Shown here piece by piece: positions 1 through 14,021 of a stretch of 24,000 nucleotides of DNA. The notes beneath the pieces are model-generated. The model did no database searches and was not told where the DNA came from. It saw only the letters and a list, made by a program, of their open reading frames with translations. Made by a program: the position numbers and the translations under genes. Source of the stretch: Kineosporia mesophila (GTDB taxonomy: Bacteria; Actinomycetota; Actinomycetes; Actinomycetales; Kineosporiaceae); the NCBI RefSeq assembly GCF_021129235.1, contig NZ_JAJOMA010000006.1:111580-135579 (forward strand). Direction: 5' to 3'. Position 1 is the first letter of the stretch. The number at the start of each line of letters is the position of its first letter.

Positions 1-26
1 CCGGGGTGTTTCCGGCGAAGCGGGTT

Positions 27-881
27 CTAACGAAGCGGGCGTAGGCCCTCGATCAGGGGCGTCGTCGGACGGCCGATGAGCCCGGACAGGTCGGTGGTGG
101 CCTCGGCAAGGGCGCCCTGGGCAATGTCGGCGTCGAGAGTGGTGACGAACCGAATGAGGTGCGGGTCGAGGCCGGCACCCGTGAGAGCCGCGATGTGGGA
201 TTCCCGGTCGAGCTGCACGAGCTCAACCGGGCGACCCAGCACCTCACCCATCACGGTCGCGAGATCGGCAAAAATCCAGGCCACGTCGCCGGAGAGCTCG
301 TAGACGCGTCCGTCGTGGTCACCACCGGCCAGCACGATCGCGGCGGCCTCGGCGTAGTCCGCGCGGGAGGCCGAGGCGACCCGGCCGGAACCGGCACTGC
401 TGAAAAGCTTTCCGGTCGCCTCCGCGTTCTTCAGGTGGGCCCCGTAGTTCTCGTGGTACCAGTTGTTGCGCAGGATCGAATAGGCCAGACCCGAGGCCCG
501 GATGAGGTTTTCGGTCGCCGCGTGGTCGGGCGCGACCAGGAGCACGGTGTCGTCGGCGTGCGGCGCCGAGGTGTAGGCGATGAAGCCGACCCCGGCCTGC
601 TGCGCCGCGGTGACGACGGAGCCGTGCAGGGCCACGCGTTCGCCGGACTCAGGACCCGAGATCAGGAGAAGCCGGTCGACACCGTCCAGAGCGGTGACCA
701 GGGCGGGAACGTCACCGTAGGAGGCGACGCGCACACCCACGCCCAGGTCAGCGAGTGCCTTGGCGCGATCGGCGTCGCGGACCACGACGACGATGTCGGA
801 CGCGGGTGTGCCCCGGGTGAGGAGGGCGTCGACGACGAGGGAGCCCAGGGCTCCGGTGGCGCCGGTGAGAGCGATGCTCAT
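27..881 (-). CDS. NmrA-like / atypical SDR NAD(P)-binding oxidoreductase
   Basis: Part of ORF 27..920. The Rossmann motif MSIALTGATGALGSLVVDALL begins at ATG 881 (cat at 879-881), giving about 284 aa. It is divergent from an HxlR regulator, which is a common pairing. Confidence 0.8.
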   Translation of the reverse strand: MSIALTGATGALGSLVVDALLTRGTPASDIVVVVRDADRAKALADLGVGVRVASYGDVPALVTALDGVDRLLLISGPESGERVALHGSVVTAAQQAGVGFIAYTSAPHADDTVLLVAPDHAATENLIRASGLAYSILRNNWYHENYGAHLKNAEATGKLFSSAGSGRVASASRADYAEAAAIVLAGGDHDGRVYELSGDVAWIFADLATVMGEVLGRPVELVQLDRESHIAALTGAGLDPHLIRFVTTLDADIAQGALAEATTDLSGLIGRPTTPLIEGLRPLR

Positions 882-940
882 GATGGTCCTTCGGGTTTTC
901 AGAGCCTCCCGGTGAGGCACTGAGAACCACGCTAATAGCC

Positions 941-960
941 TGAGGATATTAGGTTCCTCA
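941..960. promoter_or_regulatory. Inverted repeat TGAGGA-N8-TCCTCA in the NmrA-like/HxlR divergent intergenic region (possible HxlR operator)
   Basis: TGAGGA at 941-946 and TCCTCA at 955-960 were read directly. The repeat sits 17 nt upstream of the HxlR GTG. The operator role is inferred. Confidence 0.3.
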
Positions 961-976
961 AAGATACTATTGGACA

Positions 977-1381
977 GTGACCACGCCTTCGCTCGAGCGC
1001 CCCTTCGGTTCCGGTGCCGACGGGTTCCAGCCCTGCCCGATCACCCCGGTGATCGAGATCCTGTTCAGCCGGTGGACCACTCCGATCCTCTGGTCGCTTC
1101 ACCACGAGGGTCCGTTGCGGTTCAACGAGATCCGGGAGCGGCTGACCGGGGTGACGCCGAAAGTTCTCACGCAGCGGCTCCGCCAGCTCGAACGCGACGG
1201 GCTGATCACCCGCGAGCAGTTCCCGGAGGTGCCGCCGCGGGTCGAGTACTCCATCACCGAGCTGGGTCTGTCGCTCAGCCCGGCGTTCGGCGTCCTCGGG
1301 TCCTGGGCCGACGAGAACCTGTCCCTGGTCGCGCATGCCCGCGAGCGTTACGACGGGTCGGGGCGACCCCGACCCTCGTGA
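977..1381 (+). CDS. HxlR-family winged-helix transcriptional regulator
   Basis: GTG start at 977. The stretch CPITPVIEILFSRWTTPILWSLHHEGPLRFNEIRERLTGVTPKVLTQRLRQLERDGLITRE...PPRVEYSITELG is the typical HxlR signature. Confidence 0.85.
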   Translation: MTTPSLERPFGSGADGFQPCPITPVIEILFSRWTTPILWSLHHEGPLRFNEIRERLTGVTPKVLTQRLRQLERDGLITREQFPEVPPRVEYSITELGLSLSPAFGVLGSWADENLSLVAHARERYDGSGRPRPS

Positions 1382-1423
1382 CGCCCACAGGCGTCCACCA
1401 TTTGACCGATACGCTGCCTTCTC

Positions 1424-2089
1424 GTGACCTTGCGCGTGCTGGTGGCCGACGATCAGGAGCTGGTGAGAACGGGGTACGCGACGATTCTGTCGGCGCAGCC
1501 CGACATGGAGGTCGTGGGGGAGGCCGGCGACGGTCGCGCCGCGGTGAACCTGTCGCTGGAGCTGAAACCGGACGTCGTGGTGATGGATGTGCGGATGCCC
1601 GTGCTCGACGGCATCAGCGCCACCCGCGAGCTGGCCGGGCCCGGCATCGAGAATCCGGCGAAGGTACTGGTCGTGACCACGTTCCAGCTGGATGAGTACG
1701 TCTACGAGGCGTTGCGGGCGGGTGCCAGCGGGTTCCTGCTGAAGGATGCTCCGCCCAGAGAGTTGCTGAACGGTATCCGGGTCATCGCCTCCGGTGAGTC
1801 GCTGCTGGCCCCGGCCATCACGCGGCGGCTGGTGGGGAAGTTCGGCGAGCGCCTGCGGCCGACCACGGCTGTGCCGGCTGTGCTGGGGGCGCTGACCCCG
1901 CGCGAGGTCGAGGTGCTCAAGCTGATCGCCGAGGGCATGTCCAACGTGGAGATCGCCGAGGCCATGGTGGTCAGCCGGGAGACCGTGAAGACGCACGTCT
2001 CGCGCATCCTGACCAAGCTCGACCTGCGCGACCGGGTGCAGGCCGTGGTGTTCGCGCACCGCAATGGTCTGGTGAACGCCGGCTCGTAG
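1424..2089 (+). CDS. NarL/LuxR-family two-component response regulator (no cognate kinase in window)
   Basis: GTG start at 1424. The receiver domain has VLVADDQ, VVVMDVRMPVLDG and FLLKDAPP. The C-terminal GerE/LuxR HTH reads LTPREVEVLKLIAEGMSNVEIAEAMVVSRETVKTHVSRILTKL. Confidence 0.9.
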   Translation: MTLRVLVADDQELVRTGYATILSAQPDMEVVGEAGDGRAAVNLSLELKPDVVVMDVRMPVLDGISATRELAGPGIENPAKVLVVTTFQLDEYVYEALRAGASGFLLKDAPPRELLNGIRVIASGESLLAPAITRRLVGKFGERLRPTTAVPAVLGALTPREVEVLKLIAEGMSNVEIAEAMVVSRETVKTHVSRILTKLDLRDRVQAVVFAHRNGLVNAGS

Positions 2090-2209
2090 GGGTATCCCCC
2101 ACGAGAGCTACTCCAGGTGCGCTCTGTGGCGTGACGACCCAGAAGCTTCCGAAATCTAGATTTTTGATGTGACCAGGAGGCCACAGCAGACACCTAGCAG
2201 GAGGCTCCG

Positions 2210-3061
2210 ATGTTCGCTCAGCAGCTTCGTAAGACCCCGGTCCGACTGGTCGTCCTGGCGGTCGGCTTCCTGGCCGTGAACGCTCTCTTCATCGGTCCGC
2301 TCTCCGCGTTGGTCAAGCAGGGCAACCCGCTCGTGTCGCTGCTGACGCTGGTGCTGGGCGTTGCCGCAGCCTTCGCCGAGGTGTGGCTCTACCGCTGGGT
2401 GATCCGGAAGGTCGAGCACCGCGAGGCCACCGAGCTCGCCTCGGTCGACGTCGCCGCCCTGCGCCGCGGCACCCTGCTCGGCATCGGCATGTTCTCCGTG
2501 GTGATGCTGCTAATCACGATCTTCGGCGGCTATGACTCGCTGAGCTGGGGTTCGTTCTTCTCGGTCTTCGCCACCGCCGGCATGATGGCCGCCGTCGCCG
2601 TGATCGAGGAGATCATCTTCCGCGGCATCCTGTTCCGCCTGCTGGAGCAGATGACCGGCACCCTCGGCGCGATGATCGGCTCGGCCGTGGTCTTCGGTGG
2701 CCTGCACCTGATCAACGACCCAACCGCCTTCTGGGGCGCCCTGGCCATCGCGATCCAGGGTGGTCTGATGCTGGCCGCCTGCTACGCCGTGACCCGCTCG
2801 CTGTGGCTGCCGATCGGTCTGCACTTCGGCTGGAACTTCGCTGAGTCCGGCATCTTCGGCACCACGGTCTCCGGCTCCAGCAACAGCGGTAGCGGCCTCT
2901 TCCACAGCGTGCTCGACGGCCCGACCCTGATCTCCGGTGGTGACTTCGGCCCCGAGGCCACCATCTTCGCAGTCCTGGTCTGCAGCACCCTCACCCTGCA
3001 CTTCGTGCGGAAGATGACGAGCCTCTCGAAGACCGAGGCCCAGGAACTCGCCGTCGCCTGA
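2210..3061 (+). CDS. CPBP-family intramembrane glutamic endopeptidase (CAAX protease / Abi-like)
   Basis: ATG 2210 is preceded by AGGAGG at 2199-2204. The protein is multi-TM with the CPBP motifs EEIIFRGILF, FGGLHL and HFGWNF. Confidence 0.85.
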   Translation: MFAQQLRKTPVRLVVLAVGFLAVNALFIGPLSALVKQGNPLVSLLTLVLGVAAAFAEVWLYRWVIRKVEHREATELASVDVAALRRGTLLGIGMFSVVMLLITIFGGYDSLSWGSFFSVFATAGMMAAVAVIEEIIFRGILFRLLEQMTGTLGAMIGSAVVFGGLHLINDPTAFWGALAIAIQGGLMLAACYAVTRSLWLPIGLHFGWNFAESGIFGTTVSGSSNSGSGLFHSVLDGPTLISGGDFGPEATIFAVLVCSTLTLHFVRKMTSLSKTEAQELAVA

Positions 3062-3084
3062 CCCTCCCGCTCCACACCGCTTAC

Positions 3085-3118
3085 GGTGGCATTAAGGCCT
3101 CAGGGCCGAGATGCCACC
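3085..3118 (+). terminator. Stem-loop between convergent CPBP and MerR genes, followed by GCAGCGTTTTG
   Basis: GGTGGCAT (3085-3092) pairs with ATGCCACC (3111-3118). There is an inner GGCC/GGCC pairing, and a short T-run at 3124-3127. Confidence 0.35.
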
Positions 3119-3130
3119 GCAGCGTTTTGT

Positions 3131-3931
3131 CTACAGGTTCCGCTCCGTGTAAACCCTGAGCGCGTCCCTCACGTACTCCGCATACGGAGTCGCGTCGACT
3201 CCGGGCGGCGCGTAGCTCTTCGCGAAACATGGATCGGCCACGTACATCTCGCCGATCCCGATGACGTAGTCCCGGCTCGGCGCGGCCGTGATCCCCAGCC
3301 ACTCGACCTGCCGGCGGGCAATCTCCTGGGCGACCGCCCCGTCCACTGCTTCCTGATCATCGTGGGCCCGGGCGAAATCCCTGGCGATGTCGCGCATCTG
3401 CTGCCGGAACGGCGCCTTCTGCCCGTCGTCGAGCGACCGCCACCACCGGTCCCCCTTCTCGTAAACCTCCGGCCCCCACTGCTGCGTGACCTCGCCCCGG
3501 TACTGCGTGTGGTCGAACCCGTCGAGCACTTCCTCGGCCATGAGCGCCTCCCCTCCCCCGAGCTTGCGAATGGTCGTGCGGATCGACCGCACCTGCCGCC
3601 CGATGCGATCTTGTTCCTGCGCAAGCATTTCCAGATGCTCACGCAAGGCCGCCACCATGTCGGCCGACTCGTCCAGAGCCTCTTTGATCGCCGGCAGCCC
3701 AACCCCGTGCTCCCGCAGCAACAGAATCCGCTGCAACCGGACCAGCCCCCGCTGGTCGTACCAGCGCTGACCATTGCTCCCGGTCCGGCTGGGCACGAGC
3801 AACCCGACATCGCCGTAGTGCCGCAGGGTGCGACTGGTTGCACCGGTCAGCCGGGCTACCTCCTGGATGGACCATTCCGCCGTCAACGGGAACCGCGGTG
3901 GGAATTGACGTTGCGTCAATGTCAACGCCAC
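3131..3931 (-). CDS. MerR-family regulator with TipAS-like C-terminal antibiotic-recognition domain (TipAL-like)
   Basis: The HTH reads WSIQEVARLTGATSRTLRHYGDVGLLVPSR...RWYDQRGLVRLQRILLLREHGVGLPAIKEAL. The C-terminal domain resembles TipAS (QYRGEVTQQWGPEVYEKGDRWW...). The start is uncertain: GTG 3931 leaves 19 residues before the HTH, whereas in-frame TTG 3886 leaves only 4. Confidence 0.85.
   Translation of the reverse strand: MALTLTQRQFPPRFPLTAEWSIQEVARLTGATSRTLRHYGDVGLLVPSRTGSNGQRWYDQRGLVRLQRILLLREHGVGLPAIKEALDESADMVAALREHLEMLAQEQDRIGRQVRSIRTTIRKLGGGEALMAEEVLDGFDHTQYRGEVTQQWGPEVYEKGDRWWRSLDDGQKAPFRQQMRDIARDFARAHDDQEAVDGAVAQEIARRQVEWLGITAAPSRDYVIGIGEMYVADPCFAKSYAPPGVDATPYAEYVRDALRVYTERNL
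3905..3925 (-). promoter_or_regulatory. Dyad TTGACG-N3-CGTCAA abutting a TTGACA hexamer (minus strand), possible MerR-type operator/-35
   Basis: The dyad at 3905-3919 and TTGACA (minus strand, 3925..3920) were read directly. They lie inside the first 9 codons of the longest MerR ORF. No convincing -10 was found, so function is speculative. Confidence 0.25.
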
Positions 3932-3983
3932 GAACTGATGTCATTTGTGGGTATTTCCCAAATTAGGCACTATATGGATCGTG
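3932..3983 (+). promoter_or_regulatory. AT-rich spacer with a candidate promoter for the two-gene cassette, possibly giving a leaderless mRNA
   Basis: TTGTGG (3945-3950), an 18-20 nt spacer, then CTATAT/TATATG (3970-3976). The hexamer ends 6-8 nt before GTG 3981 / ATG 3984, and there is no clear Shine-Dalgarno. This is one of the most AT-rich stretches in the window. Confidence 0.3.
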
Positions 3984-4529
3984 ATGGTGGGCCGCGCAGG
4001 AGATGCGAACGCACTTCAGGGTGCCTTCGGCGAGCAGTGGCTCTGTATGGCCGCGGCCTCATGGGGCTACCAGTACGGGCGGCCCGCATTTCTGGACCTC
4101 GACAAAACAGATGTCCAGCTCTCCCTCCTCGGCGAACACTGGGGGTGCTACTCACCCACGGTTCAGATCCAGGTCAAGACCGTCAGCGGAGTGTCTGCCT
4201 CCGGAACCGAGATCTCGTACAGTCTCGATGTCCCCACTTACGACGTGCTCAGGCGCACCGACCACAGCATCAGACGCCTGTTGGTGGTCGTCATCGTGAG
4301 AGATGATGACGACCGGGCCCGCCTTCATGAGGATGGCTTGCTGGTATTGGCGCACGGGTACTGGATGTCTCTCGAAAGCCTTCCAGCCACAACGAATACC
4401 TCAACACGAGTGGTGCACGTCCCGACGAAGAACAAGATCGATGAGGAAGGGCTGGAGCGGATGCTACGAGAGAACGCCGCTCCCCGGTCCACGTCCGTTC
4501 CCGATTTCGACCCCTGGGAGATGGCGTGA
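3984..4529 (+). CDS. DUF4365-like PD-(D/E)xK (restriction-endonuclease-fold) protein, about 181 aa
   Basis: Part of ORF 3945..4529; I prefer ATG 3984 (TTG 3945 is the alternative). The motif layout matches my recollection of DUF4365: GAFGEQW (E17), LDLDKTDVQL (D40, D43) and TVQIQVKT (Q63-x-K65). The stop TGA at 4527-4529 overlaps the GTG of the next gene. Codon usage is atypical for this window. Confidence 0.7.
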   Translation: MVGRAGDANALQGAFGEQWLCMAAASWGYQYGRPAFLDLDKTDVQLSLLGEHWGCYSPTVQIQVKTVSGVSASGTEISYSLDVPTYDVLRRTDHSIRRLLVVVIVRDDDDRARLHEDGLLVLAHGYWMSLESLPATTNTSTRVVHVPTKNKIDEEGLERMLRENAAPRSTSVPDFDPWEMA

Positions 4530-5716
4530 ACGCCTCTCCTTCCACCGTGGATGGATTTCCGCCGCACTTCGACTGGCCACCACTCGACGAACTGAAGCAG
4601 TACCTGATCTCGACGAATTGGCAAGAAACGTCCCGCACGGACAAGCTCGTCATCTACCGATCCCCACTGTCCGAGGTGAGCACCGTCGTCCTTCCGGTAC
4701 ATACCGGATTCACCGACGTCGTCCAGCGTGTTTATGAGGCAGTTCGGGTTCTGTCGTGGACCGAGAAGCGCCCTGTCAGACAGGTCGTCGAAGACATTCG
4801 CAACGGTGGTGTGGACGGGGTCCTGGTGCGGACCCACCCGGAGGCCCCGAGCGGCCAGGCACCTCTCGGCTTCATCCGGATAGCCCTGCCGGCGCTGCGG
4901 GATTTTATCGCCGCTTCGGCATCGGCCACGCTACTTCAGATTCCGGCCCTGGTTCTGCCCAACCGGCGGCCGGCCCAGGCAGAATCCTATGCAGACCAGG
5001 TCATGCTCTCCACCGAGCCGGGAAGCTTCGTCTTCTCCCTTTCCCTGCCTCTGCGAGACGAGGCTCTGGAGAGCTCATCAGCATCCGACGGTTTGCTCGA
5101 CCTGGAACCCGTGCCGTTCGGGCGGCGTGTGCAGACCCGGATGGCCCAGGTCGCAGAGCGTGCCTCCGCCCTCGCCGAACAAGTCTCAGCTGGCCATGCC
5201 ACACTCCGCGCGTTCGCCAGGATGGAGCCAGGCGCGCCCAACGCCACTGAACTGGCAGCGATGTCTGCGCTCGGAGGTTCCGAATTTCATACGTACGAGA
5301 TGACATTTACCCGCTCCGCCCGATTCCGCTCACCGGAAACACCTAGTCATCTACGGATCACACCGGGGCAGCAACGCGTTCTGCACGAAGCCGCGGATTT
5401 TCTGCGCACGAAACAGCCACGCTCCAATGTGAAGGTGGTCGGTCTGGTGATCAGACTGTCACACGATACGGGGATGTCTGGCCCCGGTGAAATTACTATC
5501 TATGGCGCAGACGATGACACCGGCGCTCAACGCCGTTATCGCGTGGAGCTTGTCGATTCCGAGTATCAGCGAGCGGTTCTGGCCCATCGCGACGGACGGA
5601 TCGTTTCCATTTCCGGAGATCTTGTGATGCGCGGAAACCAGCGGCGCCTGGTCAAGACCACAGGCTTACAAGTCATGGAGCCGTCAGACGAGGAGTCGGA
5701 CTACTTGTTCGACTGA
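4526..5716 (+). CDS. Hypothetical 396-aa protein with no recognisable family, partner of the DUF4365-like gene
   Basis: GTG 4526 lies in a GTGA overlap with the upstream stop. It is a long uninterrupted ORF with non-low-complexity, structured-looking sequence: an N-terminal alpha/beta-like region, an Ala-rich helical middle and a beta-rich C-terminus (VKVVGLVIRL..GEITIYG..YRVELV..IVSISGDLVMRG). It has many A/T-ending codons, unlike its neighbours. Confidence 0.7.
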   Translation: MNASPSTVDGFPPHFDWPPLDELKQYLISTNWQETSRTDKLVIYRSPLSEVSTVVLPVHTGFTDVVQRVYEAVRVLSWTEKRPVRQVVEDIRNGGVDGVLVRTHPEAPSGQAPLGFIRIALPALRDFIAASASATLLQIPALVLPNRRPAQAESYADQVMLSTEPGSFVFSLSLPLRDEALESSSASDGLLDLEPVPFGRRVQTRMAQVAERASALAEQVSAGHATLRAFARMEPGAPNATELAAMSALGGSEFHTYEMTFTRSARFRSPETPSHLRITPGQQRVLHEAADFLRTKQPRSNVKVVGLVIRLSHDTGMSGPGEITIYGADDDTGAQRRYRVELVDSEYQRAVLAHRDGRIVSISGDLVMRGNQRRLVKTTGLQVMEPSDEESDYLFD

Positions 5717-5776
5717 ACTGCCCTGCCTGACCAGATGGCTTTTCCTATAACAAAACACGCTCGCCAGGACGCAAGG

Positions 5777-6385
5777 TCAGGCGGGGGGCCAGCTCTTCAG
5801 GGCGGCGTCGGCCACCTGCTGCAGTTCTTCGCGGGTGGCGCCGCCCGCAGCCTGGACCGCGATGCCGTTGGCCACGGTCATGACGTAACGGGCCAGCACT
5901 TCGGGGTCGGAGGTCGGGGGTAAGTCACCCTCGTCGACGGACTGCCGGAACCGGTCGAGAAGGGCCGCGCGGCCGCCGTCCCGCCACACCGCCAGCGTGT
6001 CGCGGACAACTCGCCCCGCTTCACCGGTGCTCAGCGCACCCTGCACGCCCATGCAGCCGGCGGGGCCGCCGGGCCAGGTACTCGAGCGGACCGACCCGGC
6101 GAGGAACATGGTGGCCACCTGCCGGGCGGTCGGCTGCCGCAGGGACTCGAAGGAGTAGGCCGCGGGGCCGACCGTATAGCGCTGCAGCGCCTTGAGAAAC
6201 AGCTCTTCCTTGTTCCCGAAGGCCGCGTACATGCTCTTGCGGGTGATGCCCATGGCGGCTTCCAGCTCGGTGAGGCTCGCGCCTTCGTAGCCCTGCTTCC
6301 AGAAGAGCAGCATGGCCTGCTCCAGGGCGTCGTCGGCGTCGAACCCACGCGGCCGACCGATCTGAGCCTTCTGGGGTGCGTCCAC
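5777..6385 (-). CDS. TetR/AcrR-family transcriptional regulator
   Basis: GTG start at 6385. The N-terminal HTH reads GRPRGFDADDALEQAMLLFWKQGYEGASLTELEAAMGITRKSMYAAFGNKEELF. Confidence 0.9.
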   Translation of the reverse strand: MDAPQKAQIGRPRGFDADDALEQAMLLFWKQGYEGASLTELEAAMGITRKSMYAAFGNKEELFLKALQRYTVGPAAYSFESLRQPTARQVATMFLAGSVRSSTWPGGPAGCMGVQGALSTGEAGRVVRDTLAVWRDGGRAALLDRFRQSVDEGDLPPTSDPEVLARYVMTVANGIAVQAAGGATREELQQVADAALKSWPPA

Positions 6386-6407
6386 CGCAGCATTCTAGCT
6401 CTTCGAA

Positions 6408-6455
6408 ACTGATCGGTGCAGAAGTGCTACATTCACGTTCAGCACTGATCGGTGC
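6408..6455. promoter_or_regulatory. Two copies of ACTGATCGGTGC 36 bp apart in the TetR/SDR divergent promoter region (probable TetR operators)
   Basis: Exact 12-mers at 6408-6419 and 6444-6455. The second copy sits in the imperfect palindrome GCACTGATCGGTGC (6442-6455). Confidence 0.35.
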
Positions 6456-6476
6456 CGAAAAAGACGGAGGTCAGAG

Positions 6477-7226
6477 ATGCGCAGGCTCGAAGGCAAGACA
6501 GCAGTTGTGACCGGTGGCGGTACGAAGGGAATCGGTCGGGCCACCGCGGCGAGGCTGGTGGACGAGGGCGCGCACGTTTTCATCTTCGGTCGGCGCAAGA
6601 ACGAGCTGGACGAGGCGGCCGGGCTGATCGGCACCTCGGTCACCGCCGTCCAGGGCGACATCACGAACCACGACGACCTGGACCGGCTGTACGCGGCGGT
6701 CGGCGAGCGCGGTCAGGGGCTGGACGTACTGTTCGCCAACGCGGCCACTGCCTCGTTCGGGACGATCGAGCAGATCACCGAGGAGGCCTATGACCAGGTC
6801 TTCGACGTCAACGTCAAGGGAAGCCTATTCACGGTGCAGAAGGCATTGCCGCTGCTCAATGACGGTGCCTCGGTAATCTTGAATGCTTCCACCGCAGCCG
6901 ATCACGGAGCGGTCGCCTTCGGCGCCTACTCCGCGTCCAAGGCCGCTCTGCGGACCTTCGCACGGGTCTGGGCCCATGAGCTGGCGGGCCGGAACATCCG
7001 TGTCAACGCCGTCTCACCCGGCCCGATCGACACCACCGGCATCAATGAGCTGGTCGGCGAGGAGAACGCGGCCGGCTTCAAGGCGAGCCAGGGTGCTGGT
7101 CTCCCGATCGGGCGCATCGGTCGCCCCGACGAGGTCGCCGCCGCCGTGGCCTTCCTGGCTTCGGCGGACAGCAGCTTCGTGATCGGGTCGAACCTCTACG
7201 TCGACGGCGGCGAGAACCAGATCTGA
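6477..7226 (+). CDS. Classical short-chain dehydrogenase/reductase (SDR)
   Basis: ATG 6477 is preceded by GGAGG. Motifs seen are TGGGTKGIG (cofactor binding), NAAT and YSASKAAL (the catalytic YxxxK). Confidence 0.9.
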   Translation: MRRLEGKTAVVTGGGTKGIGRATAARLVDEGAHVFIFGRRKNELDEAAGLIGTSVTAVQGDITNHDDLDRLYAAVGERGQGLDVLFANAATASFGTIEQITEEAYDQVFDVNVKGSLFTVQKALPLLNDGASVILNASTAADHGAVAFGAYSASKAALRTFARVWAHELAGRNIRVNAVSPGPIDTTGINELVGEENAAGFKASQGAGLPIGRIGRPDEVAAAVAFLASADSSFVIGSNLYVDGGENQI

Positions 7227-7266: not shown

Positions 7267-8148
7267 TCAGTTCTTCAGCCTGTTCTTCCCGGCACCGCCG
7301 TTGAGGACGTCTTTACCCAGCCCGCCGTACAGCCAGTCGTTCCCGGCCTGCCCGAACAGCTTGTCCGCACCCGAGTTGCCGTAGAGCTTGTCGTTGCCGC
7401 TGCCACCGTGGATGACGTCATTGCCGGCATCACCGTGCAAGATCTGAGCGCCCACGCCGCCGGTGATGGTGTCGTCGCCCTCATTCCCGCTGGCCGACGT
7501 GCCCTTACCGATCGCCCGCAGGACGTCGTTGCCCTCGCCGCCCTCAAGGATCAGGCCGCTGTGGCCGGTGATGGTGTCTGCACCGGGGCCGCCCCAGACC
7601 GTGGTGGCGAAATACTCGTCGCTACTCTTCGTGCGGAGGGTGTCGTTGCCGTCGCCGAGAACGAACTGATTGATGACGCGCGTGCCGGCCGGGTTCGAGA
7701 AGGTCACCGTGTCGTCCTGGTCGTACAGACGAGCCACCGTGTACGAGATCGGCTCGTCGCGATACAGATTCGCGTCGTAGTCGTCGATCGTGCAGGTGAC
7801 GCGGGTGTGGTCGGTCGTGTCGGGGTAGGCGCAGCCAGGCCCCGCCGAGATCTCCACGCTGTCGTCGTAGGTGTACGTGAAAGTTTTCCCGCCATTGGAC
7901 TTCTCGCTCGCGACAGTGAGGTCGTTCCGCTGACCCGGCGCCGCCTTGTAATCGAGCCGGTAGCCGATCCGCTGAGCTCCGCGGGCGAAGTAGTACACGC
8001 GCGCGGTGGCAGGAGCGGTGGTGGCAACGGTGCTCGCGGGCGCAGCGCCCGCGCTCTCCCCCAGACCGATGGCCGCCATCCCGACTCCCAGTAGCGAGGC
8101 GACAGCCCCGAGGCTCACCAGCTGGCGGGGGCGGCGACGCAGAGCCAT
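7267..8148 (-). CDS. Secreted calcium-binding protein with RTX (hemolysin-type GGxGxD) repeats
   Basis: ATG 8148 is preceded by GGAGAA (ATG 8163 is the alternative). The signal peptide reads MALRRRPRQLVSLGAVASLLGVGMAAIGLGESAGA. The C-terminal tandem nonapeptides read GGEGNDVL..GNEGDDTITGGVGAQILHGDAGNDVIHGGSGNDKLYGNSGADKLFGQAGNDWLYGGLGKDVLNGGAG. Confidence 0.8.
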   Translation of the reverse strand: MALRRRPRQLVSLGAVASLLGVGMAAIGLGESAGAAPASTVATTAPATARVYYFARGAQRIGYRLDYKAAPGQRNDLTVASEKSNGGKTFTYTYDDSVEISAGPGCAYPDTTDHTRVTCTIDDYDANLYRDEPISYTVARLYDQDDTVTFSNPAGTRVINQFVLGDGNDTLRTKSSDEYFATTVWGGPGADTITGHSGLILEGGEGNDVLRAIGKGTSASGNEGDDTITGGVGAQILHGDAGNDVIHGGSGNDKLYGNSGADKLFGQAGNDWLYGGLGKDVLNGGAGKNRLKN

Positions 8149-8332
8149 GTGGGGTTTCTCCATGAGAGCAAGCCGGGAAGGCAGGCAAGAGGGGATTCGC
8201 CGCAACAATATTGGACGAATGCCATCATAGGGTACCGCTTCTGGGAGCTTTTGAGTTCGGTGAACTACTGCTTCCCCAGCACCCGTGAACACCAGAACTC
8301 ATGGCCATCCGCTGACCACCCTGGAGAACCCC

Positions 8333-8932
8333 ATGCCGGATCAACAGCCGCTCACGGTCGAGGAATGGCAGGCCTTCCTCACCGAGTTCAGCCGCAGGGT
8401 GCTGACCTCGCCGGAACAGACCGTCGACCGGTTCGACCCCACCACCGAGCTGGGTTTCGTCACCGTTCCCCGGTTCAGCCCGGAGGTCCTGGAGAAGAGC
8501 TGGCTGGGCAGCGACCCGTGCAGCGAGAGCGACATTGCTGCGGCGGAAGCCCGTCTGGGCCGTGCTCTGCCTTCGCGCTTTCGGAACTTCTACCTGGTCA
8601 GCAACGGCTGGACCGATGCGGGACGGTACGGGGAAGACGTATGGCCCATCGAGAAGATCGACTGGCTACGCAACGCCGACCCCGAACTCGTCGAGGTCTG
8701 GCTCGAGGTCTACGACGAGGACGAGGCCACCATTCTCAAGACCAGCCTGCTCATCGGTTACGCCGACGGGGGCGCCGGCGATTACTGGCTCCTGAAACCG
8801 CCATCCACTGATACCGATTCAGAGTGGACCGCGTATCAATGGGGGCCCGGATCAGCCGGGGACCCGGAACCGTACGAGAACTTCGCCGTGCTCATGTCCG
8901 AGTACTTCGACGAGGTGGTGGTCGAGGGGTGA
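8333..8932 (+). CDS. SMI1/KNR4 (SUKH-1) family protein
   Basis: ATG 8333 is preceded by GGAGAA. The stretch IAAAEARLGRALPSRFRNFYLVSNGW...LLIGYADGGAGDYWLL fits the SMI1/KNR4 pattern. Confidence 0.75.
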   Translation: MPDQQPLTVEEWQAFLTEFSRRVLTSPEQTVDRFDPTTELGFVTVPRFSPEVLEKSWLGSDPCSESDIAAAEARLGRALPSRFRNFYLVSNGWTDAGRYGEDVWPIEKIDWLRNADPELVEVWLEVYDEDEATILKTSLLIGYADGGAGDYWLLKPPSTDTDSEWTAYQWGPGSAGDPEPYENFAVLMSEYFDEVVVEG

Positions 8933-13092: not shown

Positions 13093-13165
13093 CGGGGACG
13101 TGGCGCAATTGGTAGCGCACCTGCTTTGCAAGCAGGGGGTTGTGGGTTCGAGTCCCATCGTCTCC
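13093..13165 (+). tRNA. tRNA-Ala (anticodon UGC)
   Basis: Hand-folded cloverleaf: acceptor GGGGACG/CGTCTCC with G3:U70, D-arm GCGC-AATTGGTA-GCGC, anticodon arm CCTGC-TTTGCAA-GCAGG, T-arm GTGGG-TTCGAGT-CCCAT, discriminator A. No encoded CCA. Confidence 0.85.
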
Positions 13166-13253
13166 ACTCTGGTCAGAAGCCGTTTTCCGGAGTAGTCGGA
13201 GACCGAGTTCTCGCACCTGAATGGCATGAAGTGCGGCTCCTGCCGCCGGTCGG

Positions 13254-13472
13254 CTACAGATCAAGCTCGTCGATCGTCAGGCCGCCATTGTTGAGGATTC
13301 CGCGCAGTGTGCCTTTGGCCAGGTCGCGGTCGGCGTGAACGGGCACCGTGGTTCCCCGCCCGTCTGGATGCCGCATGATGTGGTGGCTGCCAGCGATTCT
13401 CGCGACTTTGAAGCCTTCTCGTTCCAGCGCACGAACGATCCGGGCTCCAGGCTCCGAGGGGAGCGGAGGCAT
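13254..13472 (-). CDS. hicA: HicA-family type II toxin (mRNA interferase)
   Basis: The 72-aa sequence ARIVRALEREGFKVARIAGSHHIMRHPDGRGTTVPVHADRDLAKGTLRGILNNGGL is a typical HicA with the conserved GSH histidine. Its ATG overlaps the hicB stop (ATGA at 13471-13474 on the minus strand). Confidence 0.85.
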   Translation of the reverse strand: MPPLPSEPGARIVRALEREGFKVARIAGSHHIMRHPDGRGTTVPVHADRDLAKGTLRGILNNGGLTIDELDL

Positions 13473-13684
13473 CAGGCGGCGACGGTGATCGACAGCTCCC
13501 GGGGTACCCCGAATTCCTCAATCAGCCCGGTGAGGGCTTCGCGGAGGTCTGCGAGGGCGGCCTCTTCGGTGTCGCCCTCGCCGTGAGCGCCCAGACCAGG
13601 TCGCAGCTGGGCGTGGGCGCACCACACGCCGTCTTCGTCCTGTTCGATGACGATCGGCACGGTTACGGTGCGGGGCTCGGCCAT
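13472..13684 (-). CDS. hicB: HicB-like antitoxin, core domain only (70 aa)
   Basis: VPIVIEQDEDGVWCAHAQLRPGLGAHGEGDTEEAALADLREALTGLIEE matches the HicB/UPF0150 N-terminal fold pattern. No C-terminal DNA-binding domain is present. Confidence 0.8.
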   Translation of the reverse strand: MAEPRTVTVPIVIEQDEDGVWCAHAQLRPGLGAHGEGDTEEAALADLREALTGLIEEFGVPRELSITVAA

Positions 13685-13868
13685 GACTCAACGATAGCCC
13701 CAAGCCGGCCCAGTGACAGGACTCCGATTGGAGCGGTCGGCACTCCTTACTGAGTGACAGTCTGAGTGTCAACGACCCGGAATGGCACCGGGCTACTATG
13801 GACCGTTCTGGACCTGTATAGCAGGTGTGGAATTGCGTCTGACCTGATCTTTTGGTCCTCGGAACCCC

Positions 13869-13911
13869 TTTGCAAACAGGGGGTTGTGGGTTCGAGCTCC
13901 ATCGTCTCTAC
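13869..13911 (+). repeat. Partial tRNA-Ala copy (anticodon loop to 3' end), direct repeat of 13124-13166
   Basis: TTTGCAAaCAGGGGGTTGTGGGTTCGAGctCCATCGTCTCtAC compared with TTTGCAAgCAGGGGGTTGTGGGTTCGAGtcCCATCGTCTCcAC gives 4 mismatches in 43. There is no upstream acceptor 5' strand or D-arm, so it is not a functional tRNA. Confidence 0.85.
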
Positions 13912-14021
13912 CGATTGGCACCAGGAGCTTCGGGTGTCGTGGACCTGGCACTCGTTCCATTGGGGCGGTGCCGATACGGAGGCTCGCCAAATTCTTACTA
14001 TGGGCTGATAGATATCTACCC

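Follow-up and report, generated by a model that had tools for sequence, protein, structure and literature searches.

A 24,000-nucleotide stretch of the Kineosporia mesophila genome (NCBI RefSeq assembly GCF_021129235.1, contig NZ_JAJOMA010000006.1, positions 111,580 to 135,579 of the forward strand; the whole stretch is hereafter called the window) carries a cassette of two overlapping open reading frames, ORF1 and ORF2, and we found that this pair is an additional member of PDC-M02, a catalogued, uncharacterised family of phage defence candidates. ORF1 matched the PADLOC model PDLC04281 (PDC-M02A) with E = 1.5e-98 and 325.9 bits, residues 1–181 falling on 181 of 181 model positions, and 24 further PDC-M02A models in PADLOC-DB v2 matched it as well. 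ORF2 matched PDLC04299 (PDC-M02B) with E = 6.7e-188 and 622.3 bits (residues 17–389 on positions 5–377 of 378). The two genes are adjacent and on the same strand with the A gene upstream, so that the Kineosporia locus shares with PDC-M02 both protein models, the gene order and the strand. A previous sequence-only reading of this DNA had taken the pair to be undescribed; that claim was wrong, because both proteins match PDC-M02A and PDC-M02B nearly end to end.

PDC-M02 is one of 145 phage defence candidates (PDCs) proposed by 'guilt-by-embedding' (Payne, Hughes, Fineran & Jackson 2024, bioRxiv 10.1101/2024.01.29.577857). These genes were nominated because they are embedded within BREX, DISARM or type I restriction–modification (RM) loci, and they were left untested; Table S8 of the same study lists the gene pair as CAS_00021 (FAM_01850>>FAM_00842), with a count of 894 and the entry 'Assign as candidate PDC-M02' (10.1101/2024.01.29.577857). 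In a 2026 survey most PDCs were still unvalidated. The searchable literature on DUF4365, the domain that we found in ORF1, consists of work on SPARDA, work on Divona or incidental annotations, and the two-gene arrangement is not described there. In contrast to the RM and BREX loci that nominated the family, the Kineosporia copy is not embedded in such a locus and stands as a lone insertion between two regulator genes.

Insertion of the cassette beside a MerR gene

Comparison with related genomes defined the cassette as an insertion. The closest ortholog of the neighbouring MerR gene, with 90% identity, is found in Kineosporia sp. NBRC 101731 (locus L038). This strain has the same NmrA–HxlR–response regulator–CPBP–MerR block, with HemolysinCabind and SMI1_KNR4 genes on the opposite side, and at this locus the DUF4365 gene and the ORF2 homolog are both absent. 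In a blastn alignment, window positions 10–3926 matched NBRC 101731 at 90.2% identity and positions 5776–6203 at 93.7%, and the 1849 bp between them (3927–5775) corresponded to 3 bp (TAC). The MerR–CPBP–regulator block is likewise kept, and the pair absent, in K. succinea, K. babensis and K. rhizophila. The pair is thus missing from four of the four other Kineosporia genomes compared. This exact indel against the closest relative brings the horizontal acquisition that the sequence-only reading had supposed close to proven. It also places the cassette boundaries almost exactly where that reading had drawn them, with the spacers included. Because the limits of the indel match the cassette plus both spacers, the two genes with their short spacers form the complete mobile unit.

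The features of the locus, with coordinates in the window, are as follows.

3131–3931, minus strand: left neighbour, a MerR/TipAS gene (domain search)
3927–5775, no strand assigned: inserted segment, comprising the cassette and both spacers (blastn against Kineosporia sp. NBRC 101731)
3927–3983, plus strand: left spacer, likely promoter region; contains the AT-richest 52-mer and, upstream of the ORF1 start, GGCACTATAT
3984–4529, plus strand: ORF1 (PDC-M02A), 181 amino acids (aa), identical to NCBI protein GCM10022223_26110 (Kineosporia mesophila, hypothetical)
4516–4529, plus strand: coupling signal, a Shine–Dalgarno-like GGGAG (4516–4520) followed by the GTGA start/stop overlap
4526–5716, plus strand: ORF2 (PDC-M02B), 396 aa, identical to GCM10022223_26100 (Kineosporia mesophila, hypothetical)
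4526–5413, plus strand: ORF2 residues 1–296, alpha/beta plus helical region (AlphaFold2 model)
5414–5716, plus strand: ORF2 residues 297–396, predicted oligonucleotide/oligosaccharide-binding (OB) fold domain and acidic tail (AlphaFold2, Foldseek)
5717–5775, no strand assigned: right spacer, with a minus-strand terminator-like hairpin (5775–5760) and a T-run
5777–6385, minus strand: right neighbour, a TetR gene convergent with ORF2 (domain search)

The domain assignments agree with the earlier placement of the cassette between a MerR/TipAS gene and a convergent TetR gene. The stop/start overlap of the two co-directional genes was also found as first read: it is 4 nt long, at the same coordinates, with the GTG of ORF2 at 4526–4528 and the TGA of ORF1 at 4527–4529.

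The GC content of the insert is 60.5%, against 67.0% for the remaining window, and GC content at third codon positions (GC3) is 0.73 in ORF1 and 0.68 in ORF2, distinguishable from the 0.85–0.92 of the five nearest flanking genes; a GC3 of 0.66–0.77 also occurs in a few further genes of the window. Thus, the foreign composition estimated from hand counts was right in direction, GC and GC3 both lying below the nearest flanks, and weaker in size than those counts had indicated. Both spacers had in addition been placed among the most AT-rich stretches. This holds for the left spacer (3932–3983), which at 40% GC is extreme, with only 0.08% of same-size segments of the window equally low, whereas the right spacer (5717–5776) is only moderately AT-rich at 55% GC, within the lowest 5.6%. 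A 52-mer overlapping the left spacer (3933–3984, 38.5% GC) is the AT-richest of the 24-kb window.

The left spacer (3927–3983) is likely to be the promoter region of the cassette. Just 5′ of the ORF1 start it contains GGCACTATAT, which resembles GGCACAATC, an element that Actinomadura-type loci (L001–L032) conserve 6–7 nt 5′ of the GTG with which the nuclease gene starts. The position of GGCACAATC would suit the −10 box of a leaderless transcript. A promoter scan gave no sigma-70 consensus match within 3700–6000, as is often the case in actinomycetes. At the opposite end, a terminator scan located the minus-strand hairpin (5760–5775) directly after the TetR stop codon, yet inside the inserted DNA. 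It is possible that the cassette brought with this hairpin its own insulator against antisense read-through.

Neither a target-site duplication nor a terminal inverted repeat was detected at the ends of the insert. There is no integrase or transposase in the 24-kb window, and its one tRNA lies approximately 7 kb from the insert. The DNA 5′ of the MerR–CPBP–response regulator block varies from genome to genome (L038–L042), with a TetR fragment, a DUF4232 gene, an isoamylase gene or a hypothetical gene at this position. Because the DNA there differs in each Kineosporia genome examined, the spot upstream of MerR is variable, which suggests a recurrent integration or rearrangement hotspot.

Several other features of the surrounding DNA were observed. 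A perfect palindrome, TTGACG-TTG-CGTCAA (3905–3919), ends 7 bp from the insertion boundary and looks like a MerR/TipA operator. In NBRC 101731, the TetR stop codon lies approximately 3 bp past this element; the insertion thus split a tight TetR-then-MerR arrangement, and it may have changed MerR expression. Near the cassette there is a second indel, 6204–6928 (725 bp), which covers the 5′ parts of the TetR gene and of an SDR gene (6477–7226). It has no counterpart in NBRC 101731, where TetR is present only as a 91-aa C-terminal fragment. Beyond it, an RTX-like HemolysinCabind calcium-binding gene (7267–8292, minus strand) stands back to back with an SMI1/KNR4 gene (8285–8932, plus strand), an arrangement also seen in the sister strain. 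Proteins of the SMI1/KNR4 family are often the immunity proteins of polymorphic toxins. The sole RNA gene of the window is a tRNA-Ala (TGC) at 13094–13167. Positions 13123–13913 match the HicA/HicB toxin–antitoxin region of NBRC 101731 in inverted orientation, which points to a rearrangement beside this tRNA.

The predicted nuclease and its partner protein

Consistent with what its motif order had suggested, ORF1 is a member of DUF4365 (Pfam PF14280), with a score of 42.6 bits, above the gathering cut-off of 24.3 (E = 7.8e-11, profile positions 27–137 of 139). The DUF4365 domain resembles the classic PD-(D/E)xK endonuclease, a restriction-endonuclease fold (PMC10810196), and by this assignment ORF1 is a predicted DUF4365/DREN-type PD-(D/E)xK nuclease of approximately 20 kDa. 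We built its alignment from genomic loci (14 homologs); a word-indexed homolog search gave just three relatives. Residues E17, D38, K41, D43, Q63, V64, K65 and T66 are invariant across these homologs, and the D...(D/E/Q)xK motif is intact as D43 ... Q63-V-K65. Of the catalytic motif proposed by the sequence-only reading, E17, D43 and Q63-V-K65 therefore stand, whereas D40 does not: this position varies, with Q or E in relatives. Sequence and family-profile searches of PDB with ORF1 gave no match, SPARDA chains included. Because these searches were empty, the PD-(D/E)xK fold of ORF1 rests on the Pfam assignment together with the published work on SPARDA.

ORF2 matches no family in Pfam (E ≤ 1) or NCBIfam, as the first reading had supposed. 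None of 22 diverse ORF2 relatives has a Pfam match, and a PDB sequence and profile search with ORF2 was also negative. The nearest ORF2 homolog anywhere is 51% identical. We then relied on AlphaFold2 (AF2) models, which were made for ORF2 only. The full-length model (39 homologs) reached a predicted local distance difference test score (pLDDT) of 88.6 and a predicted template modelling score (pTM) of 0.83, and the model of residues 1–296 reached a pLDDT of 87.3 and a pTM of 0.85. Residues 1–296 have no fold relative in PDB, the best Foldseek PDB match having E = 0.22 and template modelling (TM) scores being at most 0.18. The C terminus (residues ~297–385, 90–100 residues) aligned in a Foldseek search of PDB to the OB folds of SSB, RPA32 and Stn1, with a probability of ~1.0, a target-normalised TM-score up to 0.62 and E-values from 6e-3 to 5e-2. 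The OB-like C-terminal region anticipated from the sequence is thus supported by AF2 and Foldseek, with weak E-values, and we consider the C-terminal domain a candidate OB fold, weak by E-value. The ORF2 model also matched a protein of Leptospira phage LE1, with full-length coverage (E = 2.5e-22, TM 0.52).

Across the broad family, conservation of ORF2 falls mostly on glycine, proline and hydrophobic residues, plus R82, D97, S167, R200 and H354. In the OB region, the residues conserved family-wide are G306, L311, L342, A350, A353, H354 and G364; these are mostly glycine and hydrophobic, with H354 and some arginines in addition. ORF2 contains no Walker A motif or P-loop and no conserved catalytic-looking set of residues, and its conservation pattern is more that of a scaffold or sensor than that of an enzyme. 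Two other identities for ORF2 were considered and rejected. An ATPase or helicase is contradicted by the missing P-loop and Pfam match, and a divergent APAZ or Argonaute protein by the finding that neither AF2 model matches such a structure among the Foldseek matches listed.

Linkage, spread and decay of the family

Among clusters formed at 50% identity, a profile of ORF2 homologs retrieved 3,832 representatives with E ≤ 1e-3, and 2,120 passed E ≤ 1e-10; almost all are 370–400 aa long. To describe linkage, we used 34 loci from actinobacterial reference genomes, mostly Streptosporangiales, which were found through ORF2. In 27 of the 34, the gene immediately 5′ of the ORF2 homolog is an ORF1 homolog, which bears out the expected linkage between ORF2 and DUF4365 genes. 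Among the 24 loci in which the pair is intact, 21 are coupled by a 4-nt overlap (ATGA, GTGA or TTGA) after GGGAG or GGGGG, and in the remaining three the genes overlap by 1 nt or lie 2 nt apart. The GC content of the pair is below that of its flanks in all 24, by 7.1 points on average, and repeated transfer of the pair is likely for this reason.

The pair was also found on prophages and plasmids. In the MabE1 prophages of Mycobacterium abscessus, it makes up genes 1 and 2 at the att-proximal end, with a polymorphic-toxin cassette next to it; gene 1 encodes a DUF4365 protein (E = 3e-14) and overlaps gene 2 by 4 nt. In mycobacteriophages, the att-proximal position is where defence genes are carried. 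Plasmid-borne pairs occur in three other phyla (Spirochaetota, Pseudomonadota and Bacillota). On plasmid p28 of Entomospira culicis, the pair is surrounded by three DUF262 genes, HicA, an Abi gene and a recombinase gene, and on a Gluconobacter conjugative plasmid it adjoins Fic and RelE/ParE genes. A Pusillibacter megaplasmid carries a DUF4365 gene and a B gene with a 4-nt overlap. Each of the two proteins is represented in PHROGs by small families of unknown function.

Where a single gene of the pair has decayed, the damage falls on ORF1. The ORF1 homolog is frameshifted beside an intact ORF2 in two loci (L006 and L027), absent upstream of an intact ORF2 in two others (L022 and L023) and replaced by an insertion sequence (IS) fragment in a Pigmentibacter plasmid (L037). 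By contrast, the reverse situation, a broken ORF2 beside an intact ORF1, was seen in none of these loci, which were ascertained through ORF2. Because ORF1 is less than half as long as ORF2, its preferential loss is opposite to what neutral decay would be expected to produce, which suggests that ORF1 may be harmful without ORF2. In one further locus (L034, 6122–7764), ~1.1 kb of additional DNA, which may be an IS, interrupts the ORF1 homolog, and L029–L031 contain only fragments of the cassette.

A candidate immunity module and its rivals

The closest likeness of the pair is to SPARDA, with which it shares a DUF4365 effector of approximately 20 kDa (DREN), a two-gene operon with the nuclease gene first, and the position of the QxK motif (Q63/K65 in ORF1, Q62/K64 in TmuRE). 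In TmuRE, Q62 and K64 were predicted by alignment to form the active site, and the Q62A/K64A mutant is inactive (PMC10810196). The isolated 20-kDa DREN domain of SPARDA is monomeric and inactive, and acts as a collateral nuclease only once the partner proteins assemble it into tetramers. Unlike TmuRE–Ago and NbaSPARDA, ORF1 has no APAZ domain, DUF4365 alone covering its 181 aa, and the partner is no Argonaute either: ORF2 matches nothing in Pfam, Piwi included, and no Argonaute or APAZ structure was among its Foldseek PDB matches listed. Because APAZ and Argonaute are both absent, the cassette is not a SPARDA system; and because ORF2 is not an Argonaute, guide-RNA sensing is excluded and the trigger must be a different one.

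Three other systems resemble the pair in part. Hachiman places HamA, a small PD-(D/E)xK effector (DUF1837), next to HamB, a larger superfamily-2 helicase that acts as a restraining sensor. The likeness is one of logic only, as ORF1 is DUF4365 and not DUF1837 and ORF2 lacks a Walker A motif as well as any helicase or ATPase domain. Divona, a Vibrio integron-cassette protein for which an anti-phage effect has been reported experimentally, shares DUF4365 and is a fusion of DUF4365 and a RecB/Mrr-like nuclease to crr6; it differs from our pair in being a single fused protein with crr6 and in having no PDC-M02B-like partner. Type II toxin–antitoxin (TA) systems are similar in logic, as compact, overlapping, mobile operons from which the potentially toxic nuclease gene is preferentially lost. 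In the Kineosporia pair, however, the partner is 396 aa long and has no recognisable DNA-binding antitoxin domain, and the gene for the putative toxin comes first.

A defence, abortive-infection or TA-like role seems the most reasonable reading of the pair, because in M. abscessus prophages it occupies the att-proximal site and on a plasmid it is part of a defence island. More specifically, we propose, at roughly even chances, that the cassette is a self-contained mobile two-gene immunity module in which ORF2 senses infection and gates or assembles the nuclease ORF1. ORF1 would be the effector, with its intact D43...Q63-x-K65 site, and ORF2 its non-enzymatic partner. Translational coupling should yield matched amounts of the two proteins, so that an ORF1:ORF2 complex would probably form. 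In uninfected cells, ORF2 would keep ORF1 silent; it would also act as sensor or scaffold, by means of a C-terminal OB fold and of unassigned N-terminal domains. A phage cue, which could be single-stranded or replicating DNA or a phage protein, would then cause ORF2 to release or assemble ORF1, and ORF1 might become active by oligomerisation, by analogy with SPARDA. Active ORF1 would degrade nucleic acid, probably independently of sequence, and thereby stop the phage and possibly the cell. A stronger version is that PDC-M02 is a mechanistically new immune system in which a sensor of unseen fold with an OB domain switches on a DREN nuclease without an Argonaute or a guide RNA; we put this forward tentatively and regard it as somewhat doubtful.

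Several observations weigh against an immune function of this kind. The expectation that homologs would sit in defence islands fails for the actinobacterial clade: the 147 neighbouring proteins are mostly ordinary ones (regulators, kinases, transporters and oxidoreductases), and we found no defence-island enrichment around 25 actinobacterial loci. The matches to PD-T4-6, mad and MkoA near these loci come from a few generic kinase- or ATPase-like proteins. In the window itself, the cassette is flanked by regulators, and a scan of IMG/VR viral contigs with an ORF2 motif pattern returned no relative. The OB match is weak, as none of the Foldseek PDB matches to OB folds has an E-value of 1e-3 or below. 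The OB region is also acidic (isoelectric point 5.3), unlike that of a plain single-stranded DNA binder. This argues against a simple SSB-like clamp on single-stranded DNA and leaves open that the domain contacts a protein instead. The asymmetry of gene loss is biased, the loci having been found through ORF2. Finally, the searchable literature contains no experiment on PDC-M02, and the name appears in no main text.

We weighed three other explanations against this evidence. The cassette could encode a two-subunit, type IV-style restriction system, in which ORF2 reads DNA (single-stranded, modified or unusually structured) with its OB or beta-barrel domain and guides ORF1 to cut the invader without cell suicide or an oligomerisation switch. 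The resemblance of DUF4365 to the PD-(D/E)xK fold of restriction endonucleases (PMC10810196) and the embedding of PDC-M02 in RM and BREX loci are in keeping with this idea, as are the resemblance of the OB fold to nucleic-acid binders and the many family-conserved arginines of ORF2, such as R82, R148 and R200. We nevertheless consider it unlikely: no known modified-base reader fold was detected in ORF2 by Foldseek against PDB, the OB part is acidic, and the only DUF4365 nucleases that have been studied are collateral and non-specific. In addition, the preferential loss of ORF1 fits a self-harmful effector better than a guided nuclease. That same loss of ORF1 from loci in which ORF2 persists would also be compatible with a TA or addiction module that mainly maintains itself and its carrier element in the cell, with ORF1 as nuclease toxin, ORF2 as protein antitoxin and any anti-phage effect incidental. 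The overlapping two-gene operon, its movement as an autonomous cassette and the proximity of plasmid and prophage copies to the TA genes HicA and RelE/ParE agree with such a module. However, ORF2, at 396 aa, exceeds the putative toxin more than twofold in size, no helix-turn-helix, ribbon-helix-helix, AbrB or other DNA-binding autoregulatory domain was detected in it, and it is less usual for a putative toxin gene to come first. Chromosomal contigs with ordinary neighbours moreover account for most of the 34 actinobacterial loci, and addiction would have little to stabilise there. These points make an addiction module quite improbable.

The pair could also have an accessory part in DNA repair or recombination, as a nuclease acting with an SSB-like OB protein and uninvolved in conflict with mobile elements. 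The ordinary neighbours in actinomycetes, which are not defence genes, agree with this. PD-(D/E)xK nucleases and OB-fold proteins do cooperate in repair, and the best structural matches of the ORF2 C terminus are SSB, RPA and Stn1. By contrast, the distribution of the pair is patchy, with absence from the four other Kineosporia genomes, and its composition is foreign in all 24 loci. It is carried on prophages and plasmids, it decays frequently, and it was nominated as a PADLOC candidate through its embedding in RM and BREX loci. A role in repair therefore appears very improbable, and we favour the immunity module in which ORF2 controls ORF1, at the strength given above.

To a specialist in defence systems, the presence of this cassette will be unsurprising; it is nonetheless a clean, minimal and widespread candidate, and the Kineosporia locus offers an entry point into an abundant, unstudied candidate system (a count of 894 in the original survey and 3,832 clusters of B proteins here). 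Our analysis adds a natural before-and-after comparison that defines the mobile unit between flanks 90–94% identical, a B protein of which two-thirds is modelled confidently and has no fold relative in PDB, and, through the effector domain shared with SPARDA, a testable hypothesis of activation without Argonaute. If this hypothesis is true, PDC-M02 would represent a second, independent control of the SPARDA effector, encoded by a bare, mobile 1.8-kb cassette whose family comprises at least 3,800 sequence clusters and is absent from Pfam. If confirmed, it would add to the ways in which bacteria are known to arm a collateral nuclease and could provide a compact sensor–nuclease pair for engineering.

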